A stretch of DNA of 61,378 nt from an uncultured Anaerolineales bacterium. GTDB taxonomy: Bacteria > Chloroflexota > Anaerolineae > B4-G1 > SLSP01. The stretch spans positions 22,088 to 83,465 of the forward strand of contig CAZDSF010000008.1 of assembly GCA_964508025.1 (NCBI GenBank), in the 5' to 3' direction. Below are positions 4,175 to 12,717 of the stretch, one piece after another; position 1 is the first letter of the stretch; every line of letters starts with the position of its first letter. The notes under the pieces are model-generated. The model was not told where the DNA came from. It worked only from the letters and a program-made list of their open reading frames with translations, and ran no database searches. Both the position numbers and the translations under genes were made by a program.

Positions 4175-5304
4175 TGCGCGTTGCGTTAAACGGCTGGTTT
4201 TGGGAGCGCCCGGAGACGGGCAGCGGGCAATATCTGCGGCGGCTGGTGCAGGCGTTGGCGCGCACCCAGCCGGCTCTCGCCTTGACGCTCTTCACACCGG
4301 GGACGCAGGCGCCTGCCGATGCTCCGCCGGGCGTGGAGACGGCGTTGCTGCCGGCGCCGCCCGGCGCGTGGGGCAAAGTCTGGTGGGAGCAATGCGCCCT
4401 GCCGCGCGCGGTGCGCCGGCGGGGCGCGGATCTGCTGCATGTCCCCTACTGGGGTTCTCCCTGGCGGGCTGTTTGCCCCATCGTCGTCACCGTTCACGAT
4501 TTGATTCCGCTGCTGTTGCCTGCCTATCGCGGCGGGCTGCTGGTGCGCCTGTACACGGCGCTGGTCAGCGCTACGGCGCGCCGCGCGGCGCTGGTGTTGA
4601 CGGATTCCGAGGCGGCGCGGCCCGATATCGTGCGGCATCTGCGCCTGCCGGAAACGCGCGTGCGGGCGATCTGGCTCGCGGCGGACGCGGATTTCTGCCC
4701 CACTGCCGCCGCTGAGGATGCTGCGCAGCGCGACGCGCTGGGACTGGCGCCGGGCTATGCGCTCTATCTGGGCGGCTTCGACGTGCGGAAGAATCTGGCG
4801 GCGGTCTTTGCCGCGTTTGCGCGCGTGCGTGAGCAACTTCCGCAGGCGCGGCTGGTGATCGCGGGGCGCTTGCCCGCGCAGGATAGCGCCTTCACCCCCG
4901 ACCCGCGCCGGTTGTGGCGCGAAGCGGGGCTGCCGGAGACGGCGGTGCATTTCACCGGCTTCATTCCTGATGCCGCGAAGCCGGCTCTGTACCGGGGTGC
5001 GCGCGCTTTCATCTTCCTCTCGCGCTACGAGGGTTTCGGGCTGCCGCCATTGGAGGCGTTGGCTTGCGGCGTCCCGGTGGTGGGCAGCGACGCCGCCAGC
5101 CTGCCGGAAGTGATCGGTGAAGCCGGGGTGCTGGTCGCGCCGGATGATGTCGCGGGGGCGGCAGCGGCGTTGACGCGGTTGCTGCGCGATGCGGCTTTCC
5201 ACGGGACATTGCGGGAGCGCGCCTTGCAGCAGGCGGCGCGCTTCTCGTGGGAGCGGACGGCGGCGGAGACGGCGGCGGCATATCGGCAGGCGTTGAGCAG
5301 CTAA
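4174..5304 (+). CDS. Glycosyltransferase family 1 (GT4-like)
   Basis: Internal ATG at 4174 gives MRVALNGWFWERPETGSGQYLRRL. C-terminal EGFGLPPLEALACGVPVVGSDAASLPEVIGEAG matches the GT1 E-x7-E region. Confidence 0.85.
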   Translation: MRVALNGWFWERPETGSGQYLRRLVQALARTQPALALTLFTPGTQAPADAPPGVETALLPAPPGAWGKVWWEQCALPRAVRRRGADLLHVPYWGSPWRAVCPIVVTVHDLIPLLLPAYRGGLLVRLYTALVSATARRAALVLTDSEAARPDIVRHLRLPETRVRAIWLAADADFCPTAAAEDAAQRDALGLAPGYALYLGGFDVRKNLAAVFAAFARVREQLPQARLVIAGRLPAQDSAFTPDPRRLWREAGLPETAVHFTGFIPDAAKPALYRGARAFIFLSRYEGFGLPPLEALACGVPVVGSDAASLPEVIGEAGVLVAPDDVAGAAAALTRLLRDAAFHGTLRERALQQAARFSWERTAAETAAAYRQALSS

Positions 5305-5336
5305 TGGCGATGTGCGCCTTCAAACTTGACTGAAGT

Positions 5337-6293
5337 TCATCGTCGCAACAACGCCCGTGGAATCCCGACAAAACCCTGCCCCGTTCGCTGCGGATCACGC
5401 AGTGCGAGCGTTCCATCCGGGCGGCGGGTGAAGGGCTGCATTCCGCTGCCCCACGCGGGATCATCGGTCAATGCCATGGGCGTGAGCGCCTCTACCAGGA
5501 TGATGTCGCCGGCGCGGCTGTGGGGCGTCAGCGTTTCGTCGGCGTCCACCCGCACCCCAAAGAAGTAGGCGCCGGGACGCACGTCGAGCAGGGGCAGGGT
5601 GCTCACTTCCAGGGGCAGCCATTCGGGGGCGGCCAAGAAATCGAAATCCAGCACGCGGGTGGGGACGCGCAGCCTGTCCAGGGAGATTGCCAGGGCTTCG
5701 ATGGGGATTTCGGAAACGCCGGCGCAGTACGGATAGACGGGGACGATGAGCGCGTGGCTGCCCGGCGGCGTTTGCCCGCGCAGCGGCGTGAGCGCCGCAA
5801 TCCATTGCGCTACCTGCCCACAGGCATCGAAATACTCGCGTCCGGTATGCACCGCCCAATAGCGCCGGCTCACATCGAGTTGGGATTGGGCTTCCATGAG
5901 CAGCGGCAACGCGCGGGCGTCATCATGCAGGCAGAAGTACAGCAGCCCGGCGAAATAGACGGCGATGGCTTCGTTGTAGCGCGCGATGGGGCTGGATTGT
6001 ACCTTGAGCCAGCTCGCTGCTGCCGTGGTCAACTCTAGCGCCTCCAACCAGCGCTCGGAACGCCACAAGAGATCGGCCTTGTACAGGCTGAGCAACGCTT
6101 CGGCGTGGCGCTCGCGTTGATTCCGCACCGCCGTGAGCGCGTTTTCGGCCATGGTGAGCGCCTCATCGAAAGCGAGGTGTTGCGTTGCCGGGGGCGCATC
6201 GAGGGCAAGCCAGGCGCGCAACGGTGCGGGCACGTCCTGAAACTCTGCCAGCTGTAGCGGGACCAATGCAGGAGGCACGCAGATATGGCGCAT
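5337..6293 (-). CDS. Hypothetical protein, helical N-terminal half
   Basis: 318-aa ORF with codon usage consistent with neighbours. No motif recognised with confidence. Confidence 0.45.
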   Translation of the reverse strand: MRHICVPPALVPLQLAEFQDVPAPLRAWLALDAPPATQHLAFDEALTMAENALTAVRNQRERHAEALLSLYKADLLWRSERWLEALELTTAAASWLKVQSSPIARYNEAIAVYFAGLLYFCLHDDARALPLLMEAQSQLDVSRRYWAVHTGREYFDACGQVAQWIAALTPLRGQTPPGSHALIVPVYPYCAGVSEIPIEALAISLDRLRVPTRVLDFDFLAAPEWLPLEVSTLPLLDVRPGAYFFGVRVDADETLTPHSRAGDIILVEALTPMALTDDPAWGSGMQPFTRRPDGTLALRDPQRTGQGFVGIPRALLRR

Positions 6294-6294
6294 A

Positions 6295-7626
6295 TCAGAC
6301 CTTGGCGGGCAGTTTGGGCAGGGCTGGTGGCGTGTCGCCGGCGCCTTCGAGAATCTGGGTGATCATCAGGTTCAGGCTTTCCAGCTGTTGGAACATGGTG
6401 CTTTGGACGAGCGGATCCTTTTCGGCCATGCTCTGCATCACGTGCAGGAATTCGAGCAGCACCTCGGTGGAGAAGCCCTGCGCGTTCTCGACGGTGATTT
6501 TCTTGAGCGGCTCCAACAGCGCGTCGAGCAGCTCGGCGCGGGCGCGGATGCGCGCGAGTTCGTACTCTTTCTCCGGCAGCACCAGCGCCTTGGCTTCATC
6601 CTGTGCCGCCCGGAATTGCCATTCGCTGCGCCACAGTTCCAGCCATTGCTCGGAGATGGCGTTCACATCGGGCAGGATGGAGATCAGGTGGACGTGATCA
6701 ATTTTGACGCCGTGTTCCCAGGCTTGCTCGCGGATGGCTTGCTGCACCTGTTCCTCGATGATCGTGAGCAATGAGGGGCCAGACCGGGTGGGATCGAAAA
6801 GTTCATCCGTGCGATATTGCTCAATGTAGTTGCGCACCTCGCCATCAATCGTGCCATTGGTGACGCGCCGCATCCAATCCGTCACCGCCTGCTTCCCACC
6901 TGGCTCCAAAGCCACTTTACTCGTCGTAAGTTTCAGCACGGTGGCGCGGTCCTGATCGGTGAATGCCATGGGCAGGGGGGCGACGCCAGTGAGCGTGTCA
7001 TTTTCCCGGCGCATTCGGAAGCGCGCTTCCACCTTGCATGTGACAGGGATGCCATCGCGGGTGTTGGCAGACACTTCGAATTCACGGTTCTGAGGGCGCA
7101 AGTCTACTTTGTCCCAAATCCGTTCAAAGGCTTCGAGCCGGCACAGGCTGGCACATTCCACCCGTGTGATCGTTCCTCCCCGCGCCAGAACGATCGCCGT
7201 ATCATGCCCAACACTCAAATGTCCAGGCCCGCCGACTTTGTACAGGATTTCTGGGCCATCGGGATGGGGTCGCCCTTCGGTTACGGGCATGATCGGATCG
7301 AGAGGCGGCGTTTTGTAGACGCCGACCATGATGCGCCAGACCAGTTTGGTGGCTTCTTCGGGAGAGAGTGCGTAAAGCGATTGAACGAATTGGATCAGAA
7401 GCGCCTGGGCGCCCAGAAAGGCGAGCAACAGCGCGATGAACATCCCGACGGGGAGGCTGCCTGCAAGCGCCAGCGCTCCTTGTACAGGCGTCTCGCTGTT
7501 GATGATCGGTTGGAAAGCTTCCGGCGTGGTGACGGCGAGCAGGAGCGTGAACGCTGCAGTAAGCAAGAGCATCACGCCCAGCATGAGGATGCCAACAATG
7601 AGTCGGTCCGTGCTTCGCGTAGGCAT
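6295..7626 (-). CDS. SPFH/band-7 domain membrane protein
   Basis: N-terminal TM segments (LIVGILMLGVMLLLTAAFTLLLAV..). SPFH-like core ...LRPQNREFEVSANTRDGIPVTCKVEARFRMR, then a coiled C-terminal region (EQVQQAIREQAWEHGVKIDHVHLISILPD). Confidence 0.6.
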   Translation of the reverse strand: MPTRSTDRLIVGILMLGVMLLLTAAFTLLLAVTTPEAFQPIINSETPVQGALALAGSLPVGMFIALLLAFLGAQALLIQFVQSLYALSPEEATKLVWRIMVGVYKTPPLDPIMPVTEGRPHPDGPEILYKVGGPGHLSVGHDTAIVLARGGTITRVECASLCRLEAFERIWDKVDLRPQNREFEVSANTRDGIPVTCKVEARFRMRRENDTLTGVAPLPMAFTDQDRATVLKLTTSKVALEPGGKQAVTDWMRRVTNGTIDGEVRNYIEQYRTDELFDPTRSGPSLLTIIEEQVQQAIREQAWEHGVKIDHVHLISILPDVNAISEQWLELWRSEWQFRAAQDEAKALVLPEKEYELARIRARAELLDALLEPLKKITVENAQGFSTEVLLEFLHVMQSMAEKDPLVQSTMFQQLESLNLMITQILEGAGDTPPALPKLPAKV

Positions 7627-7635
7627 AGGCGATCC

Positions 7636-9156
7636 TTAATCCTCCTCCCTGGCGCGTCGCTGCAAGACGGTTAGGATTTCGGAGGTTGGTTTTGACAGGC
7701 TGGCTTTGACTTCGGGCTGTTGTGCAATCTTATCCAACGTCTCTAGCAATTGCAGGACGATAAAGCTCAATCTTGCTTGCGCGCTGGTTTGCTGTAGCGT
7801 GTTGTACTGCTGAAGGATCAATTCTAGCAGTTCTCGTAGCACATCGCTGCGCGCGCGACCCTGTTCGCGCACATATTCGGCTTTGATTTTGCCGCGATTG
7901 CTTTCGAGTATGTGCAGTTTGTGCGCTTTCCAATTTTCGATGCGTTGTTCTACGACTGTTGGATCTGCGGGGATGATTCGGTTCCCCACGCCGCCGCCGT
8001 AAACCTTGATACCGTTATTTGCCATCTGTTGCTCAACGTGTTGTCGCACCTCGCGGGCAATGGTCAGGCGCGGCAGTTCGCCCGGACGCGGTTCGATAAT
8101 GGCATAGAGCTCATCCAGAGAGTAGCGTTTTACGAGATGTCGCAGATGATGGGAAGCTTCTTGCAGAGGGAGCTTGGTCCACGAGTGCGCCTCGTGGGCA
8201 TCGAGGGGGGTAGCGCGCTTATCCGGGTTGACTTCGGCGGCGAGGTAAGCCTGCAAGGCGGCGTTGCGATCATACTCCCACGGAACGCCGGGCTGGGTGG
8301 GCGGTTTGCTATCCTTCAACTTGAAGATAGAGGAGCAGGGCACAAGCACTTCGATATTGTCGCGGGTTTGCGCCGTGATGCCTTTATCCGGTCGAAACTG
8401 ACCTTGCAGATCCATGACGTATTTGGGGATTTCGCCTCTTTCGATGAAGATAACGCCCGGCCCGATGACATCTTTGACGCTGGTTCCCTGGTAGCGCACC
8501 ACGGCGTATTCAGGCTCCGTAATCAGCAGACCCGGCCCGGTGCCGACGAAGGGGTTACCCTGGATGCGGGTCTCTAATTTGCGATCCACAATCATGACGG
8601 CGGGACGCGGTCCGGTGGTGAGAAAACCGGTGAGCAGCTGCGCCGCTTTGTGCTGTGAGGTGCGGATTTCGGCGGGACTCAGCGGCAGCATTCGCGGCGC
8701 CCAGTGGTAGAGCAGCGCCAGGGTAAACGCAGGCGGTGCAAGGATGAAGAAGAGCAATGGCAGAAGGGAAAAGGTCAGCGCTGATTTTCCTTCTGCCAAC
8801 AGCAGCCAGTACAGTATTGGCGCCGCCGAAAAAACGACCACAAAGGACATGGCTAAGATAAAAAAAGGGTGGGTTGGGACTTTCATCACCCGCATCCAGG
8901 GAATGTAGAGCAGGCATACTGGCAACAAAACAGCCAGTATCACGATGATGGCCGGATGCAGCGGCGAGTAATCTATCCAGAGATAGACGCTGAGCGGGGT
9001 AATCAGGGGCATCGCCAGCGCCAGGATGAAGTGGAAATTCCGCGCCACAGGATGGACGTGGGCTGCGCCGATTTTGGGAGGATTGTGCAGCATGTAGCGT
9101 TGTGCAACTGCGGCTGCAACAACGTATCCGACGAGGATGAGCAGGCGTATGAGCAT
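7636..9156 (-). CDS. Polytopic membrane protein with C-terminal SPFH/band-7 domain
   Basis: Probable start MLIRLLILVGYVV at 9156, preceded by aaggag. About 7 TM helices. Then EPEYAVVRYQGTSVKDVIGPGVIFIERGE...ITAQTRDNIEVLVPCSSIFKLKD and ...GIKVYGGGVGNRIIPADP, SPFH-like. The track ORF extends to 9276. Confidence 0.6.
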   Translation of the reverse strand: MLIRLLILVGYVVAAAVAQRYMLHNPPKIGAAHVHPVARNFHFILALAMPLITPLSVYLWIDYSPLHPAIIVILAVLLPVCLLYIPWMRVMKVPTHPFFILAMSFVVVFSAAPILYWLLLAEGKSALTFSLLPLLFFILAPPAFTLALLYHWAPRMLPLSPAEIRTSQHKAAQLLTGFLTTGPRPAVMIVDRKLETRIQGNPFVGTGPGLLITEPEYAVVRYQGTSVKDVIGPGVIFIERGEIPKYVMDLQGQFRPDKGITAQTRDNIEVLVPCSSIFKLKDSKPPTQPGVPWEYDRNAALQAYLAAEVNPDKRATPLDAHEAHSWTKLPLQEASHHLRHLVKRYSLDELYAIIEPRPGELPRLTIAREVRQHVEQQMANNGIKVYGGGVGNRIIPADPTVVEQRIENWKAHKLHILESNRGKIKAEYVREQGRARSDVLRELLELILQQYNTLQQTSAQARLSFIVLQLLETLDKIAQQPEVKASLSKPTSEILTVLQRRAREED

Positions 9157-9298
9157 AGCCGTTCTCCTTAAACGGGCACATGATTTCAATTTCAATGTAG
9201 CACAAAAGTGGAAAAAAGGAAATGTGGTGTGGTATAATCTATTCAGATGATGGAACACCCAAGTGGCGTCAAACATTTGTAGCAGGTTCTACACGCAC

Positions 9299-10990
9299 AT
9301 GGAAATCAAAGAAATCGCCAAACACCTACACCAGATTCCGTTGTTCCAGGGTTTGAAGGATGACCGCGACGAGCTAGAGCTCTATCGGGTCGCTGCGTTA
9401 GCTAAAGAGGCGGAGTATGCTCCTGGAGAGCGGCTGTTCGGGCAAGGAGAATCCGCCGATCGGCTGTATTATGTGTTGCGCGGCCGGATCCAGTTGACGC
9501 GCCTGGGCGCCGATGGTGTCCGCGCCGACCTGGGGATGAAGCGTCCGGGAGATGCCTTCGGCGAGACTGGGCTGCTGGTCGGCGACTTCCACGACGCCAC
9601 CGCTGAAGCGCTTTCGCCGGTGCGCTTGTTGTATCTGGAGCGTGGGGAATTCCTCACGCTCTTGGAGCAGCGTCCTCGATTGCGGCAGCGGTTGGCGCTC
9701 AGCCCGGAGACGCTGCGAAAGCAGCACATTCCGCGCTTTTCCTGGATGCGCGATGACGAGTGGGCGGTGCATCTGGGTCGCCGGCATCTGATGGGGCTGA
9801 TGCGGCGGATCATGCTGCCTGTGTTGGCGCTGGTGCTGGTTGTAGTGCTCGCCTATATGCTGGCGCGAGTCTCGGCAACTGCGGCGCTGGTCGTGGGGCT
9901 GCTTTTGAGCCTTTTCCCGGCGGGGCTGTTGGCCTGGGACTATATTGACTGGTACGATGATCGCTTCATCCTCACCACGCAGCGGGTAGTTCATCTGGAG
10001 CGCAAAGGCCCTTTTGGCAGTATGTCCGAGGAAGCGGCGCTGGATGACATTCAGGATGTCCTCGAAGTGCGCTCGAATGTGGTGGCGAATCTGTTGGATT
10101 ACGGCGACATCATCCTCCAAACGGCGGGCGGCACCGTGAAGATTGACTTCACCGAAGTGGGGCAGCCTAGCTTGTGGCGCCAGCTGATCCTGCGGGAGAT
10201 GGGGCGGATTCAGGCGCGCCGCGTGGTGCGGATGCGCGGCGAGACGCGCCAACAGCTCGAGGCCCGGCTGAATCTGGCGCCGCCGCCGGAACCAACGGTC
10301 GTACAGACCGAGCCGCCGAAGCCGCCTTCTCCGGTGACGTTTTTCGCTAAAACCTTTCTGGAATTGCTGTTCCCGGCGAGTTGGGTGGAAAGTCCTGATA
10401 AGCTCACGATCAGATGGCGGCGTTTCTGGCTGCCGGGATTTTTCCACTACTGGTGGGTCTCCATGCTTTTCTTGCTCATCACTTTTGGCGGTCTGATCGT
10501 GTTGGCATCGCTAGAGCCGGCAGATATGGCATACTGGCTGATTCCCTGGCTGTTTGCGGAAGTGGTTTTGCTGTGTGTGGTGCTGTGGTACATCGAGGAC
10601 TGGCGCAACGACTTCTTCGAGATCACGCCGACCCACATCATTCATGTGGATCGCAAGCCGCTGTGGGGGCGCATCACCCGCCGCGAGGCGCGGTTGGATC
10701 GCATCCAGAACATCACCTCAGATGTGCCGAGTATCTGGGCGCGAATGTTGAAATACGGCTCAGTGACGCTGGAGACCGCCGGCGCCGAAGGGCAGTTCAA
10801 GATTTGCTACGTGCGGGATCCGGAGCGCGTGCGCGCCGAAATCTCCCGGCGGCAGCAGGAATTCCGCAAGCGCGACCTGACTCGCCAGGCGGCCCAGCGT
10901 CAAGACGAGCTGCTCAGCTGGTTTGCGATTTATGATTCGCTGCGTCATCCGCAGACCTATCCAGGTATGGAGGATGAGAATCTGGCATGA
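9299..10990 (+). CDS. cNMP-binding domain fused to a YdbT-like membrane protein with two bacterial PH (bPH_2) domains
   Basis: MEIKEIAKHLHQIPLFQGL...FGQGESADRLYYVLRGRI...GDAFGETGLL is a CAP/cNMP-binding fold. Two TM hairpins are each followed by WDYIDWYDDRFILTTQRVVHLERKGPFG.. and WYIEDWRNDFFEITPTHIIHVDRKPLWG.. (bPH_2/YdbS-YdbT-like). Confidence 0.7.
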   Translation: MEIKEIAKHLHQIPLFQGLKDDRDELELYRVAALAKEAEYAPGERLFGQGESADRLYYVLRGRIQLTRLGADGVRADLGMKRPGDAFGETGLLVGDFHDATAEALSPVRLLYLERGEFLTLLEQRPRLRQRLALSPETLRKQHIPRFSWMRDDEWAVHLGRRHLMGLMRRIMLPVLALVLVVVLAYMLARVSATAALVVGLLLSLFPAGLLAWDYIDWYDDRFILTTQRVVHLERKGPFGSMSEEAALDDIQDVLEVRSNVVANLLDYGDIILQTAGGTVKIDFTEVGQPSLWRQLILREMGRIQARRVVRMRGETRQQLEARLNLAPPPEPTVVQTEPPKPPSPVTFFAKTFLELLFPASWVESPDKLTIRWRRFWLPGFFHYWWVSMLFLLITFGGLIVLASLEPADMAYWLIPWLFAEVVLLCVVLWYIEDWRNDFFEITPTHIIHVDRKPLWGRITRREARLDRIQNITSDVPSIWARMLKYGSVTLETAGAEGQFKICYVRDPERVRAEISRRQQEFRKRDLTRQAAQRQDELLSWFAIYDSLRHPQTYPGMEDENLA

Positions 10991-11039
10991 GCGCCTGCCA
11001 AATCGAAGAGTGGATAATGTTTGGGGGAGGTAAGGGATT

Positions 11040-11588
11040 GTGACCGTGCGACCTGTGATTACAGTGGGCGATCCGCGCTTGCGACAGCGCTCGCGGACGG
11101 TGGATAAAATCACGCCGGATGTGCAGCAGTTGATTGATGACATGATCGAGACGATGCACGCCAGCGATGGCATTGGCCTGGCGGCGGTGCAGGTGGGCGT
11201 GCTGCAACAGATCATCGTGGTCGAGGTGCCGGAGGATGAAGAAATCCCCGGCAGCGGGCAGCGCTACATCGTCATCAACCCGGAGATCGTGCGCGCCTCG
11301 CAAGATGCGGAGATAGGGATTGAGGGGTGCCTTTCGGTGCCTGGGTACGTGGGTGATGTGGAGCGCTCGGTCTCCATCTTTGTGCGGGGCCTGGATCGGC
11401 GTGGACAGAAATTGCGCCTGCGGCTCAACGGTTTTCTGGCGCGTGTTTTCCAACATGAGATTGATCACACGCGAGGCGTATTGTACATTGATCGGTTGGT
11501 TGCGCCAGATCGTATCTGGCGGGTGAAAGAGGGGACTGAGGAACAGGTGGAGAAGGAAGGCGCCTTGCCCGCTGAAGCGCACGCTTGA
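11040..11588 (+). CDS. def: Peptide deformylase
   Basis: GIGLAAVQVG, EGCLSVPG and HEIDH motifs. GTG start. Confidence 0.95.
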   Translation: MTVRPVITVGDPRLRQRSRTVDKITPDVQQLIDDMIETMHASDGIGLAAVQVGVLQQIIVVEVPEDEEIPGSGQRYIVINPEIVRASQDAEIGIEGCLSVPGYVGDVERSVSIFVRGLDRRGQKLRLRLNGFLARVFQHEIDHTRGVLYIDRLVAPDRIWRVKEGTEEQVEKEGALPAEAHA

Positions 11589-11652
11589 GTGAGCGTTGCG
11601 CAAAACGAGGCTCTTGATCCTTCATCCTTATATTTTTTGGGGATGCAAGTGT

Positions 11653-12717
11653 ATGGTTTCGGTTCAACAAGTAATGCAAGCCCTGGCGCAGGTGATGGAT
11701 CCTGTAATCCGTCGTGATATTGTGGATTTGGGGATGGTGCGCGAGGTGCAAGTCAAGGGGCAGGTTGTTCATGTGACGGTGGCATTGACGGTGCCCAATT
11801 GCCCGATGCAGGGCAGCATTGCCGCCGATGTGCAGCAGGCGGTCGAGGCGTTGGAGGATGGCTTGCAGGCGCAGGTGACGATGACGGCGATGACGCCGCA
11901 AGAGAAAGAGCGTTTGCTCTCCAAGTTGCGTCAGGGGCGCCCTGAGCAGAAGCAACAGTCGTTGGCCGGGCAGATGAATAAGGTCAAGGCCGTCATCGCG
12001 GTACTAAGCGGCAAAGGCGGGGTGGGCAAATCCACCACCGCGGCGCTCCTCGCGGCGGGGCTGCGGCAGCAGGGCTTGCGCGTGGGCATCCTCGACGCTG
12101 ACATTACCGGGCCGAGCATTCCCAAGTTGCTCGGCGTGGACGAGGTCCCCGTGATGGGGCCGCTGGGCATTGTGCCGCCGCTTAGCGCGGGCGGTATCAA
12201 GCTCATGTCCATCAACTTGCTACTGCAAGAGCAGGATGACGCCGTAATCTGGCGCGGGCCGCTAATCTCCGGCGCGATTCAGCAATTCTGGAACGACGTG
12301 TTTTGGGGCGACCTGGATGTGCTGCTGGTGGATCTCCCGCCTGGCACCTCGGATGCGGCATTGACGGTGATGCAGGCATTGCCGGTGAACGGCGTGGTCA
12401 TCGTCACCTCGCCGCAGGATTTGGCGGATATGGTGGTGCGCAAAGCGGCGCGGATGGCGGAACAGTTGCGCGTGCCCATCCTGGGCATTGTGGAGAACAT
12501 GAGCTACGTGATCTGCCCGCATTGCGGCGAACGGCATGAGATTTTCGGCAAGGGCCGCGCTGAGACGCTGGCGACGGCCTTCAATACGAAATTCCTGGGG
12601 CATCTGGGATTGGATGCCGAACTCACGCGGCTTTCCGACGCCGGTCAAATCGAGGCTTATAGCAGCCCGGAAGTGGCGCACGTCATTGCGCAGGTGCGCG
12701 CGGCGTTGCCGGCATAA
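11653..12717 (+). CDS. apbC: Fe-S cluster carrier ATPase Mrp/ApbC with N-terminal DUF59 (MIP18) domain
   Basis: MVSVQQVMQALAQVMDPVIRRDIVDLGMV is DUF59. AVLSGKGGVGKSTTAALLA is a deviant Walker A. CPHCGERHEIFG. Confidence 0.9.
   Translation: MVSVQQVMQALAQVMDPVIRRDIVDLGMVREVQVKGQVVHVTVALTVPNCPMQGSIAADVQQAVEALEDGLQAQVTMTAMTPQEKERLLSKLRQGRPEQKQQSLAGQMNKVKAVIAVLSGKGGVGKSTTAALLAAGLRQQGLRVGILDADITGPSIPKLLGVDEVPVMGPLGIVPPLSAGGIKLMSINLLLQEQDDAVIWRGPLISGAIQQFWNDVFWGDLDVLLVDLPPGTSDAALTVMQALPVNGVVIVTSPQDLADMVVRKAARMAEQLRVPILGIVENMSYVICPHCGERHEIFGKGRAETLATAFNTKFLGHLGLDAELTRLSDAGQIEAYSSPEVAHVIAQVRAALPA

Follow-up and report, generated by a model that had tools for sequence, protein, structure and literature searches.

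The stretch of DNA analyzed here, 61,378 nt from an uncultured Anaerolineales bacterium of the phylum Chloroflexota (hereinafter the 61-kb window, to which all coordinates refer), contains two adjoining and divergently oriented gene arrays. On the minus strand, gene A (7636-9156), coding for a polytopic SPFH protein of 506 aa, is followed by gene B (6295-7626), coding for an SPFH protein of 443 aa with a hairpin anchor of two predicted transmembrane (TM) helices, and by gene C (5337-6293), whose product is a predicted soluble, TPR-like protein of 318 aa. On the other side of an intergenic region of 142 bp (9157-9298), gene D (9299-10990) runs on the plus strand and codes for a 563-aa protein combining a CAP-type cNMP_binding-like domain with two bPH_2 domains; it is succeeded on the same strand by def (11040-11588) and an mrp/apbC-like gene (11596-12717), both assigned from the Pfam families of their orthologues. 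A first-pass annotation had proposed that the two SPFH genes and D make up one functional unit. The tandem arrangement of A and B on one strand and their divergence from D hold at these coordinates; the third co-oriented gene, C, had been overlooked. As detailed below, A-B-C is a conserved, Chloroflexota-restricted operon that has not previously been characterized, whereas D belongs to a separate conserved unit.

The boundaries of these genes are supported by their relatives. The open reading frame (ORF) of A could extend to 9276, but its start is placed at 9156 because an identical (100%) 506-aa protein is on record (P0028) and its orthologues are 506-512 aa long; moreover, this ATG is preceded by the Shine-Dalgarno sequence AAGGAG. 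Likewise, D is taken to start at 9299 because its orthologues begin with MEIKEI or MELKDI. For B, an exact look-up of the protein of the window in public assemblies returned no match. The three minus-strand genes are very closely packed: A and B are 9 nt apart in the window and the start codon of C lies 1 nt past the stop codon of B, while across 34 loci the gaps are mostly -4 to +3 nt between A and B and mostly 2-16 nt between B and C.

Both A and B match the Pfam Band_7 model (PF01145) with scores of 30.3 and 34.1 bits, respectively, against a cutoff of 23.6, which bears out the SPFH cores proposed for them in the first-pass annotation. This generic family is their sole Pfam match, and searches against NCBIfam at E-values up to 1 recovered no family for either, including HflK and HflC. 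Direct comparison of the two proteins with hhalign aligned 345 columns, from the last TM helix of A to the C-terminus, at an E-value of 3.3e-27; by this measure A and B are paralogues. In the AlphaFold model of A (predicted local distance difference test score, pLDDT, of 77), five N-terminal TM helices (residues 2-156) precede the SPFH domain (approximately residues 186-390), a 57-residue helix (399-455), and further C-terminal helices. Thus, the model displays an SPFH fold followed by a long, predicted coiled-coil helix, and B would share this fold by virtue of its paralogy to A. The approximately seven TM helices earlier proposed in front of one of the SPFH cores give way to the five of the A model; B has two. 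Structural searches with the A model using Foldseek retrieved the HflK/C complex as the top match (7vhq, E 2e-9, about 300 aligned columns), with further matches to prohibitin, stomatin, erlin, flotillin, QmcA-YbbJ, and the major vault protein.

The distribution of positively charged residues around the TM segments allows a prediction of membrane orientation. In A, the weighing of lysine and arginine counts (6.05 versus 0.89) favors the placement of the SPFH domain on the cytoplasmic side; in B, the N-terminus scores 2.28 in 9 residues as against 1.44 in the 17-residue loop of the hairpin. Accordingly, the SPFH domains of both proteins are predicted to be cytoplasmic.

Neither Pfam nor NCBIfam yielded a match for C itself. 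Its 36 orthologues are more informative: TPR_12 is detected in 18 of them, TPR_2 in 16, and other TPR models in fewer. Since the Pfam matches in the orthologues are limited to such TPR-type repeats, C is consistent with a soluble cytoplasmic protein. Its structural model (overall pLDDT 54.6) comprises an N-terminal TPR-like helical repeat at about residues 40-174, the only part predicted with confidence (pLDDT 72-81), and a β-rich C-terminal domain at about residues 180-318 with no recognized fold. The helical half finds the TPR domains of KLC1, LGN, and Sec17 only weakly in Foldseek searches (E 6e-3 and above), and profile searches of the PDB with C returned marginal matches to TPR proteins only. 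The family is small: a search of 1.84 billion representatives found 109 clusters, whose lengths almost all lie within 300-360 aa, and an orthologue carries the NCBI label hypothetical protein. The motif GDIILVE had raised the idea of an S24/LexA-like fold for the C-terminal domain, which was dropped: an hhalign comparison of the 36-sequence profile with Escherichia coli LexA aligned 6 columns with a probability of 0.1%, and the Peptidase_S24 model of Pfam matched none of the 36 orthologues. Sub-threshold adenosine-deaminase matches in a few orthologues fall on the helical repeat and were judged spurious. Comparison of C with the third gene (about 400 aa) accompanying more distant SPFH pairs gave an hhalign E-value of 0.002 yet a probability of 13%. 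Separately, the search with the C profile recovered a 663-aa protein (P0123) in which a helical domain resembling the N-terminal part of C is fused to a caspase-like protease of the CHAT family.

The phyletic range and the gene neighborhoods of the operon set it apart as a unit in its own right. The B family is sparse (17 homologues among 5.8 billion proteins, those with a named source being from Chloroflexota), and a profile scan covering one genome per GTDB species retrieved 78 loci, all in metagenome-assembled genomes of Chloroflexota and spanning the Anaerolineae, Thermoflexia, Caldilineae, Ardenticatenaceae, and Promineifilaceae. Mapping the proteins of the window onto these loci, with 8 kb fetched on each side, placed A, B, and C together in 40 of the 78, with flanks that vary. 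The most frequent companion is a gene for a PfkB-family kinase, which comes directly after C, with the same orientation, in 32 of the 40 A-B-C loci. In most of these 32 loci, 12-36 nt separate the tblastn alignment ends of C and the kinase, and at three loci (L005, L014, L031) the called ORFs overlap. This kinase also occurs near more distant SPFH pairs of the Promineifilaceae and Caldilineae type at 17 further loci (L051, L065, L067, L073-L086). Of the 86 loci retrieved with B as the query (L001-L086), 51 carry the kinase gene downstream of their SPFH genes, with C in front of it at L005, L014-L049, and L052. The kinase is 310-316 aa long and 44-67% identical across loci, and its best NCBIfam matches are to pseudouridine kinase, followed by ribokinase, with a score of 173 against an equivalog cutoff of 540. 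It may be functionally tied to the SPFH complex or may merely be an inherited neighbor.

D behaves quite differently. It adjoins A-B-C in just five of the 40 species loci, to which can be added close metagenomic relatives (L001-L004, L007-L008), and wherever it does so the entire region from gyrA, CSD, and GT4 through def, mrp, and tetR is syntenic. In all 32 PfkB-bearing loci, the 8 kb retrieved to either side are free of D. The upstream neighbors outside the clade of the window include giant DUF11 proteins, Mur ligase, Lon, VanZ, ScpA, and LexA, and neither cNMP_binding nor bPH_2 domains are among those listed. The reciprocal test, a scan of metagenome contigs with a D profile, yielded 30 loci: wherever the locus is long enough, D is succeeded by a co-oriented def, and this in turn by mrp where the contig allows. 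Relatives of D at 65-66% identity have A-B-C next to them, whereas in those at 42-47% identity D comes immediately after GT4 and no SPFH genes intervene (11 loci: L093, L096, L097, L099, L105, L106, L111, L112, L114, L116, and L118). Because A-B-C occurs mostly without D, and D-def-mrp occurs without SPFH genes, the two are independent conserved units.

The domain content earlier proposed for D is upheld by Pfam, with 69.1 bits for cNMP_binding (PF00027; cutoff 27.5) and 42.6 bits for bPH_2 (PF03703) in two stretches. The cNMP_binding-like domain occupies residues 1-130 and is followed by two repeats of a TM hairpin and a bPH_2 domain, as in YdbT, with the hydrophobic hairpins at about residues 170-215 and 375-430, one before each bPH_2 domain, and by a conserved C-terminal helix. 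Matches of D in PADLOC are weak and confined to the cNMP domain (E 3e-4 or worse). Alignment with E. coli CRP (hhalign probability 93%) places His98-Asp99 of D against R82-S83 of CRP, the Arg-Ser pair of the phosphate-binding cassette that contacts cAMP, and the corresponding motif GDFHDA is invariant in all six aligned orthologues of D. Given this replacement of Arg-Ser by His-Asp, canonical binding of cAMP or cGMP by D appears doubtful. Thus, D shares a fold-level family with the domains of CRP and PKA and departs from them at the Arg-Ser/Thr that contacts the phosphate. It resembles the YdbS/YdbT-type proteins in the TM hairpins and bPH_2 repeats, and differs from them in the N-terminal CAP-type domain and in adjoining def and mrp rather than bacteriocin genes; ydbST features in a paper on the sigma-W regulon of Bacillus, and such PH-domain proteins have been implicated in the transport of leaderless bacteriocins (PMC3498285, PMC8657885). 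As an aside, in distant homologues of D, about 690 aa in length, the bPH_2 domains appear to be preceded by a tandem pair of cNMP_binding-like domains, and def and mrp still follow the gene (L094-L104, L107-L109, L112, L114-L117). The only other adjacency of cNMP and SPFH domains that we saw is at L051, where a soluble histidine kinase with a cNMP domain (1399-2562) is divergent from a duplicated SPFH pair; it keeps the canonical Arg of the cassette, unlike D, and as a soluble histidine kinase it was rejected as a D-like protein.

The spacer between A and D holds a single promoter-like site, a sigma-70-like element at 9209-9238 on the plus strand, placed so as to serve D (TGGAAA, an 18-nt spacer, and an extended -10 TGgTATAAT; 10 of 12 matches), though such sites are no more numerous in this region than in shuffled sequences and the evidence is weak. 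In the near-identical relative L003 the equivalent spacer measures 484 bp (4672-5157) as opposed to 142 bp in the window. The additional stretch of about 340 bp has no Rfam match, and neither the L003 spacer nor positions 4500-11800 of the window gave one.

Comparison with the same relatives uncovered a mosaic pattern. The DNA of the window is 96-99% identical to that of L003 and L004 across gyrA-GT4-C and from the 5' part of D through def and mrp. However, sliding identity to L003 falls to 57-80% in a first block (6450-9150), which covers codons 1-390 of B and all of A, and to 72-85% in a second (10350-10950), covering codons ~341-563 of D with its second TM hairpin and second bPH_2 domain; between the two blocks, the identity is 95-99%. 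The synonymous divergence (dS) amounts to 1.29-1.36 in the first block against 0.04-0.16 in the flanks, with a ratio of nonsynonymous to synonymous divergence (dN/dS) of about 0.2, and to 0.89 in the second block against 0.11 for D codons 1-340. Because dS is far higher inside these sharply bounded blocks than in their flanks, the A-B alleles and those of the C-terminal half of D are, by this estimate, anciently diverged versions brought in by recombination rather than the outcome of rapid evolution in situ. Independent assemblies contain both haplotypes, L003 and L004 the one and L088 the other, and the L003 allele is slightly closer to that of another lineage. C, which is 96% identical between the haplotypes, works with both of them. 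The joint replacement of A-B and of the C-terminal half of D is the sole hint of a link between D and the SPFH proteins, and comes from two haplotypes only.

A further dimension is added by variants of the operon that contain EAD7 domains. EADs are homotypic adaptors in the conflict systems of multicellular prokaryotes, in which Band7-like domains are listed among the superstructure-forming modules (Kaur et al. 2020, PMC7159879). At L119 and L120, a variant operon (4842-9362 in L119) encodes A-like (E 1e-63), B-like (E 6e-60), and C-like (E 2e-41) proteins, and the C orthologue, which is 453 aa long in L119, has an EAD7 domain (72 bits) lodged between its TPR-like and β-rich domains. Several of the same Anaerolineae genomes also possess a second, larger SPFH pair (L055, L058, L060, L061, L064, L066, L068, L071), with a first protein of 770-860 aa and a second of about 540 aa; EAD7 is inserted in the first protein in all seven cases examined (26-34 bits). 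At L058 this larger pair is flanked by an ABC1 atypical kinase gene upstream and by genes for a UvrD helicase, an uncharacterized 640-aa protein, and a DnaJ-domain protein downstream, and the same pattern of gene sizes recurs at the other loci of the larger pair. In the window, EAD7 was found neither in A, B, or C with Pfam nor anywhere along the 61 kb with a local search using its hidden Markov model (HMM). The EAD7-bearing variants hint at a link to conflict systems.

Among characterized SPFH systems, the closest structural parallel is HflK/HflC-FtsH (SPFH3; PDB 7vhq, 7wi3, 9cz2), which likewise has tandem SPFH paralogues in each of which a long helix succeeds the SPFH domain. The first-pass comparison of A-B to an HflK/HflC-type pair therefore stands as regards the tandem paralogy and the best structural match, whereas membership of the HflK/HflC families does not, as none of their HMMs matches. 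Nor are A and B much larger than the E. coli proteins, as had been stated: their 506 and 443 aa only modestly exceed the 419 and 334 aa of HflK and HflC. The two systems also differ in that HflK and HflC have one TM helix each in place of the five of A and two of B, and in their genomic context, which is ftsH/hflX in the one case and a TPR-like partner gene in the other. Moreover, SPFH3 faces the periplasm, whereas the SPFH domains of A and B are predicted to be cytoplasmic, the orientation reported for SPFH1 (PMC2636767). In this respect, and in having a tight operon with a dedicated non-SPFH partner, A-B-C is more reminiscent of the stomatin/flotillin-NfeD operons (SPFH1, SPFH2, and SPFH5; e.g., QmcA-YbbJ, YuaG-YuaF, and PH1511-PH1510), and the weak sequence matches of A and B in the PDB are to stomatins, with PH1511 the best; duplication of SPFH genes within one operon is also known (PMC2636767). 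The partners themselves are dissimilar: NfeD has three TM helices and an OB-fold, whereas C is encoded downstream, is predicted to be soluble, and is made up of TPR-like and β-rich domains, and no NfeD family was detected with Pfam in A, B, C, or the 36 orthologues of C. In eukaryotes, prohibitin 1/2, erlin 1/2, and flotillin 1/2 are paralogue pairs that alternate in a ring, and the A model aligns to these proteins with E-values of 1e-8 to 1e-6. These cages belong to another kingdom, have other anchors, and share no sequence relation with A-B beyond the SPFH core.

Taking these observations together, we consider it rather probable that A-B-C is a translationally coupled Chloroflexota operon whose SPFH proteins assemble into a hetero-oligomeric ring on the cytoplasmic side of the membrane, C serving as the adaptor of this ring. 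Under this proposal, A and B would alternate in a large ring or cage, as do HflK/HflC, prohibitin 1/2, erlin 1/2, and flotillin 1/2; the ring would be fenced by a palisade of the five-TM segments of A and the two-TM segments of B, with the SPFH domains and coiled coils facing the cytoplasm. C, kept stoichiometric by translational coupling, could bind to this scaffold, either as its adaptor or as a client, filling the place that NfeD or FtsH takes in characterized SPFH systems (PMC2636767). The TPR-like N-terminal domain of C and the EAD7 adaptor inserted in its L119 orthologue support such adaptor-like behavior. In most lineages the operon runs on into the gene for the PfkB-family (ribokinase/pseudouridine-kinase-like) enzyme, whereas in the clade of the window a cassette of A-B-C lacking the kinase appears to have been inserted, in inverted orientation, between the GT4 gene and the unrelated D-def-mrp array, and the divergent arrangement of A and D would be a consequence of this insertion in one clade.

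Several points weigh against this interpretation. The identity of A to solved SPFH structures in the Foldseek alignments is just 14-17%, and profile searches of the PDB with A and B bring up only the stomatin PH1511, marginally so (E 0.048). The predicted orientation has the positive-inside rule as its sole source, and the signal in B is modest. The C-terminal half of C is modelled at a pLDDT below 50. The PfkB kinase gene is found neither at this locus nor anywhere else in the window, and neither a protease nor a channel nor any other client could be identified for A-B-C.

Each of the alternatives explains part of these data. The first-pass proposal, in its fullest form, has D sensing a cyclic nucleotide and controlling the SPFH pair, either by way of the promoter region that the divergent genes share or by contacting the SPFH proteins directly, as a single envelope-stress unit. 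The divergent adjacency is indeed kept throughout the clade of the window (L001-L004, L007-L013, L089-L092), the A-B block and the C-terminal half of D have both been replaced relative to L003 in a manner that could reflect co-adaptation, and L051, a distant locus, offers a second pairing of a cNMP domain with SPFH genes. However, the co-localization in related genomes that such a unit calls for breaks down outside this one clade: A and D are neighbors only within wholesale synteny, the majority of A-B-C operons have the kinase and no D, the more divergent D lineages retain GT4-D-def-mrp devoid of SPFH genes, and cNMP_binding and bPH_2 domains are not among the upstream neighbors listed elsewhere. 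The notion that the unit responds to cyclic nucleotides is further undercut by the His-Asp of the D cassette, and the sole promoter-like site in the spacer faces D. The gene-neighborhood data thus largely refute this proposal, which we regard as the least probable of those considered here. Only slightly less remote is the idea that A-B regulates a membrane protease, for example FtsH or Lon, in the manner of HflK/HflC. The HflK/C-FtsH complexes are the best structural matches of A and Lon is encoded upstream of the SPFH operon in three loci; yet, besides the lack of any HflK/HflC match in NCBIfam or Pfam and the disparities in TM number and predicted orientation, neither ftsH nor hflX occurs in the neighborhoods examined, and the adjacency to Lon is limited to those three loci.

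An improbable, though somewhat more credible, option is that the SPFH complex serves a metabolic or envelope-precursor role together with the PfkB kinase, for instance by localizing or gating the phosphorylation of a sugar or nucleoside at the membrane. It gains from the close 3' placement of the kinase gene in most of the 32 loci, with ORF overlaps in some, from its recurrence behind more distant SPFH pairs, and from its pseudouridine kinase and ribokinase affinities. Against it stand the want of the kinase in the window, the far stronger conservation of the kinase than of A, B, and C, such that the linkage could simply be inherited housekeeping synteny, and a score so far below the equivalog cutoff that the substrate is left unassigned. 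The last alternative, still unlikely but deserving of notice, is that A-B-C constitutes the membrane-scaffold arm of a conflict system concerned with immunity or programmed cell death, in which the ring nucleates a superstructure and C recruits effectors. This would accord with the EAD7 insertions in the L119/L120 C orthologue and in the larger SPFH pair, the fusion of a relative of the C N-terminal domain to a CHAT protease, the occurrence of EADs and Band7-like domains in known conflict systems (PMC7159879), and the segregation of deeply diverged A-B haplotypes in one population. In its broadest version, A-B-C and the larger EAD7-bearing paralogue might supply the membrane scaffolds for a hitherto undescribed network in filamentous Chloroflexota that provides immunity or programmed cell death: the SPFH ring would be the assembly platform to which C (TPR with or without EAD7) recruits effectors, balancing or diversifying selection would maintain the A-B haplotypes while recombination exchanges them, and the C-terminal half of D may be a co-adapted membrane contact. 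This, too, we put forward as a speculation with a small chance of being right. Unlike the EAD-coupled systems, and despite the EAD7 in relatives of the operon, the window has no EAD7-like segment and its A-B-C operon is free of NTPase, vWA, and effector genes; PADLOC gives no match for A, B, or C; the operon is usually accompanied by the gene for a PfkB kinase that is itself well conserved (55-67% identity), and its surroundings are housekeeping genes; and the dN/dS value speaks for purifying selection within each haplotype. We therefore retain the SPFH ring with C as adaptor as the favored interpretation.

Elsewhere in the window, the G+C fraction drops from about 0.60 to 0.44-0.51 between 53865 and 60918. 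The genes in this segment code for a GH5 cellulase-like protein, a CARDB-domain protein, a PMT_2/STT3-like glycosyltransferase, a GT87 glycosyltransferase, and a Wzt-type ABC ATPase; it looks like a surface-glycan island, possibly horizontally acquired.

SPFH proteins are universal membrane scaffolds, most bacterial subfamilies of which have no assigned function, and insight into those that do has come by way of their partners, FtsH and NfeD. The operon described here defines a phylum-restricted SPFH pair with a five-TM anchor, a TPR-like partner of a new kind, and a recurrent link to a PfkB kinase. It also illustrates how two divergent genes whose domains invite a joint interpretation can owe their adjacency to an accidental, lineage-specific insertion; the label of a “cNMP-responsive microdomain” should not enter annotation. 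A-B-C thus presents a tangible and testable system in a multicellular phylum that has been little studied, and its EAD7-bearing variants, together with the replacement of whole haplotypes, may offer a bridge from SPFH scaffolds to bacterial conflict systems.

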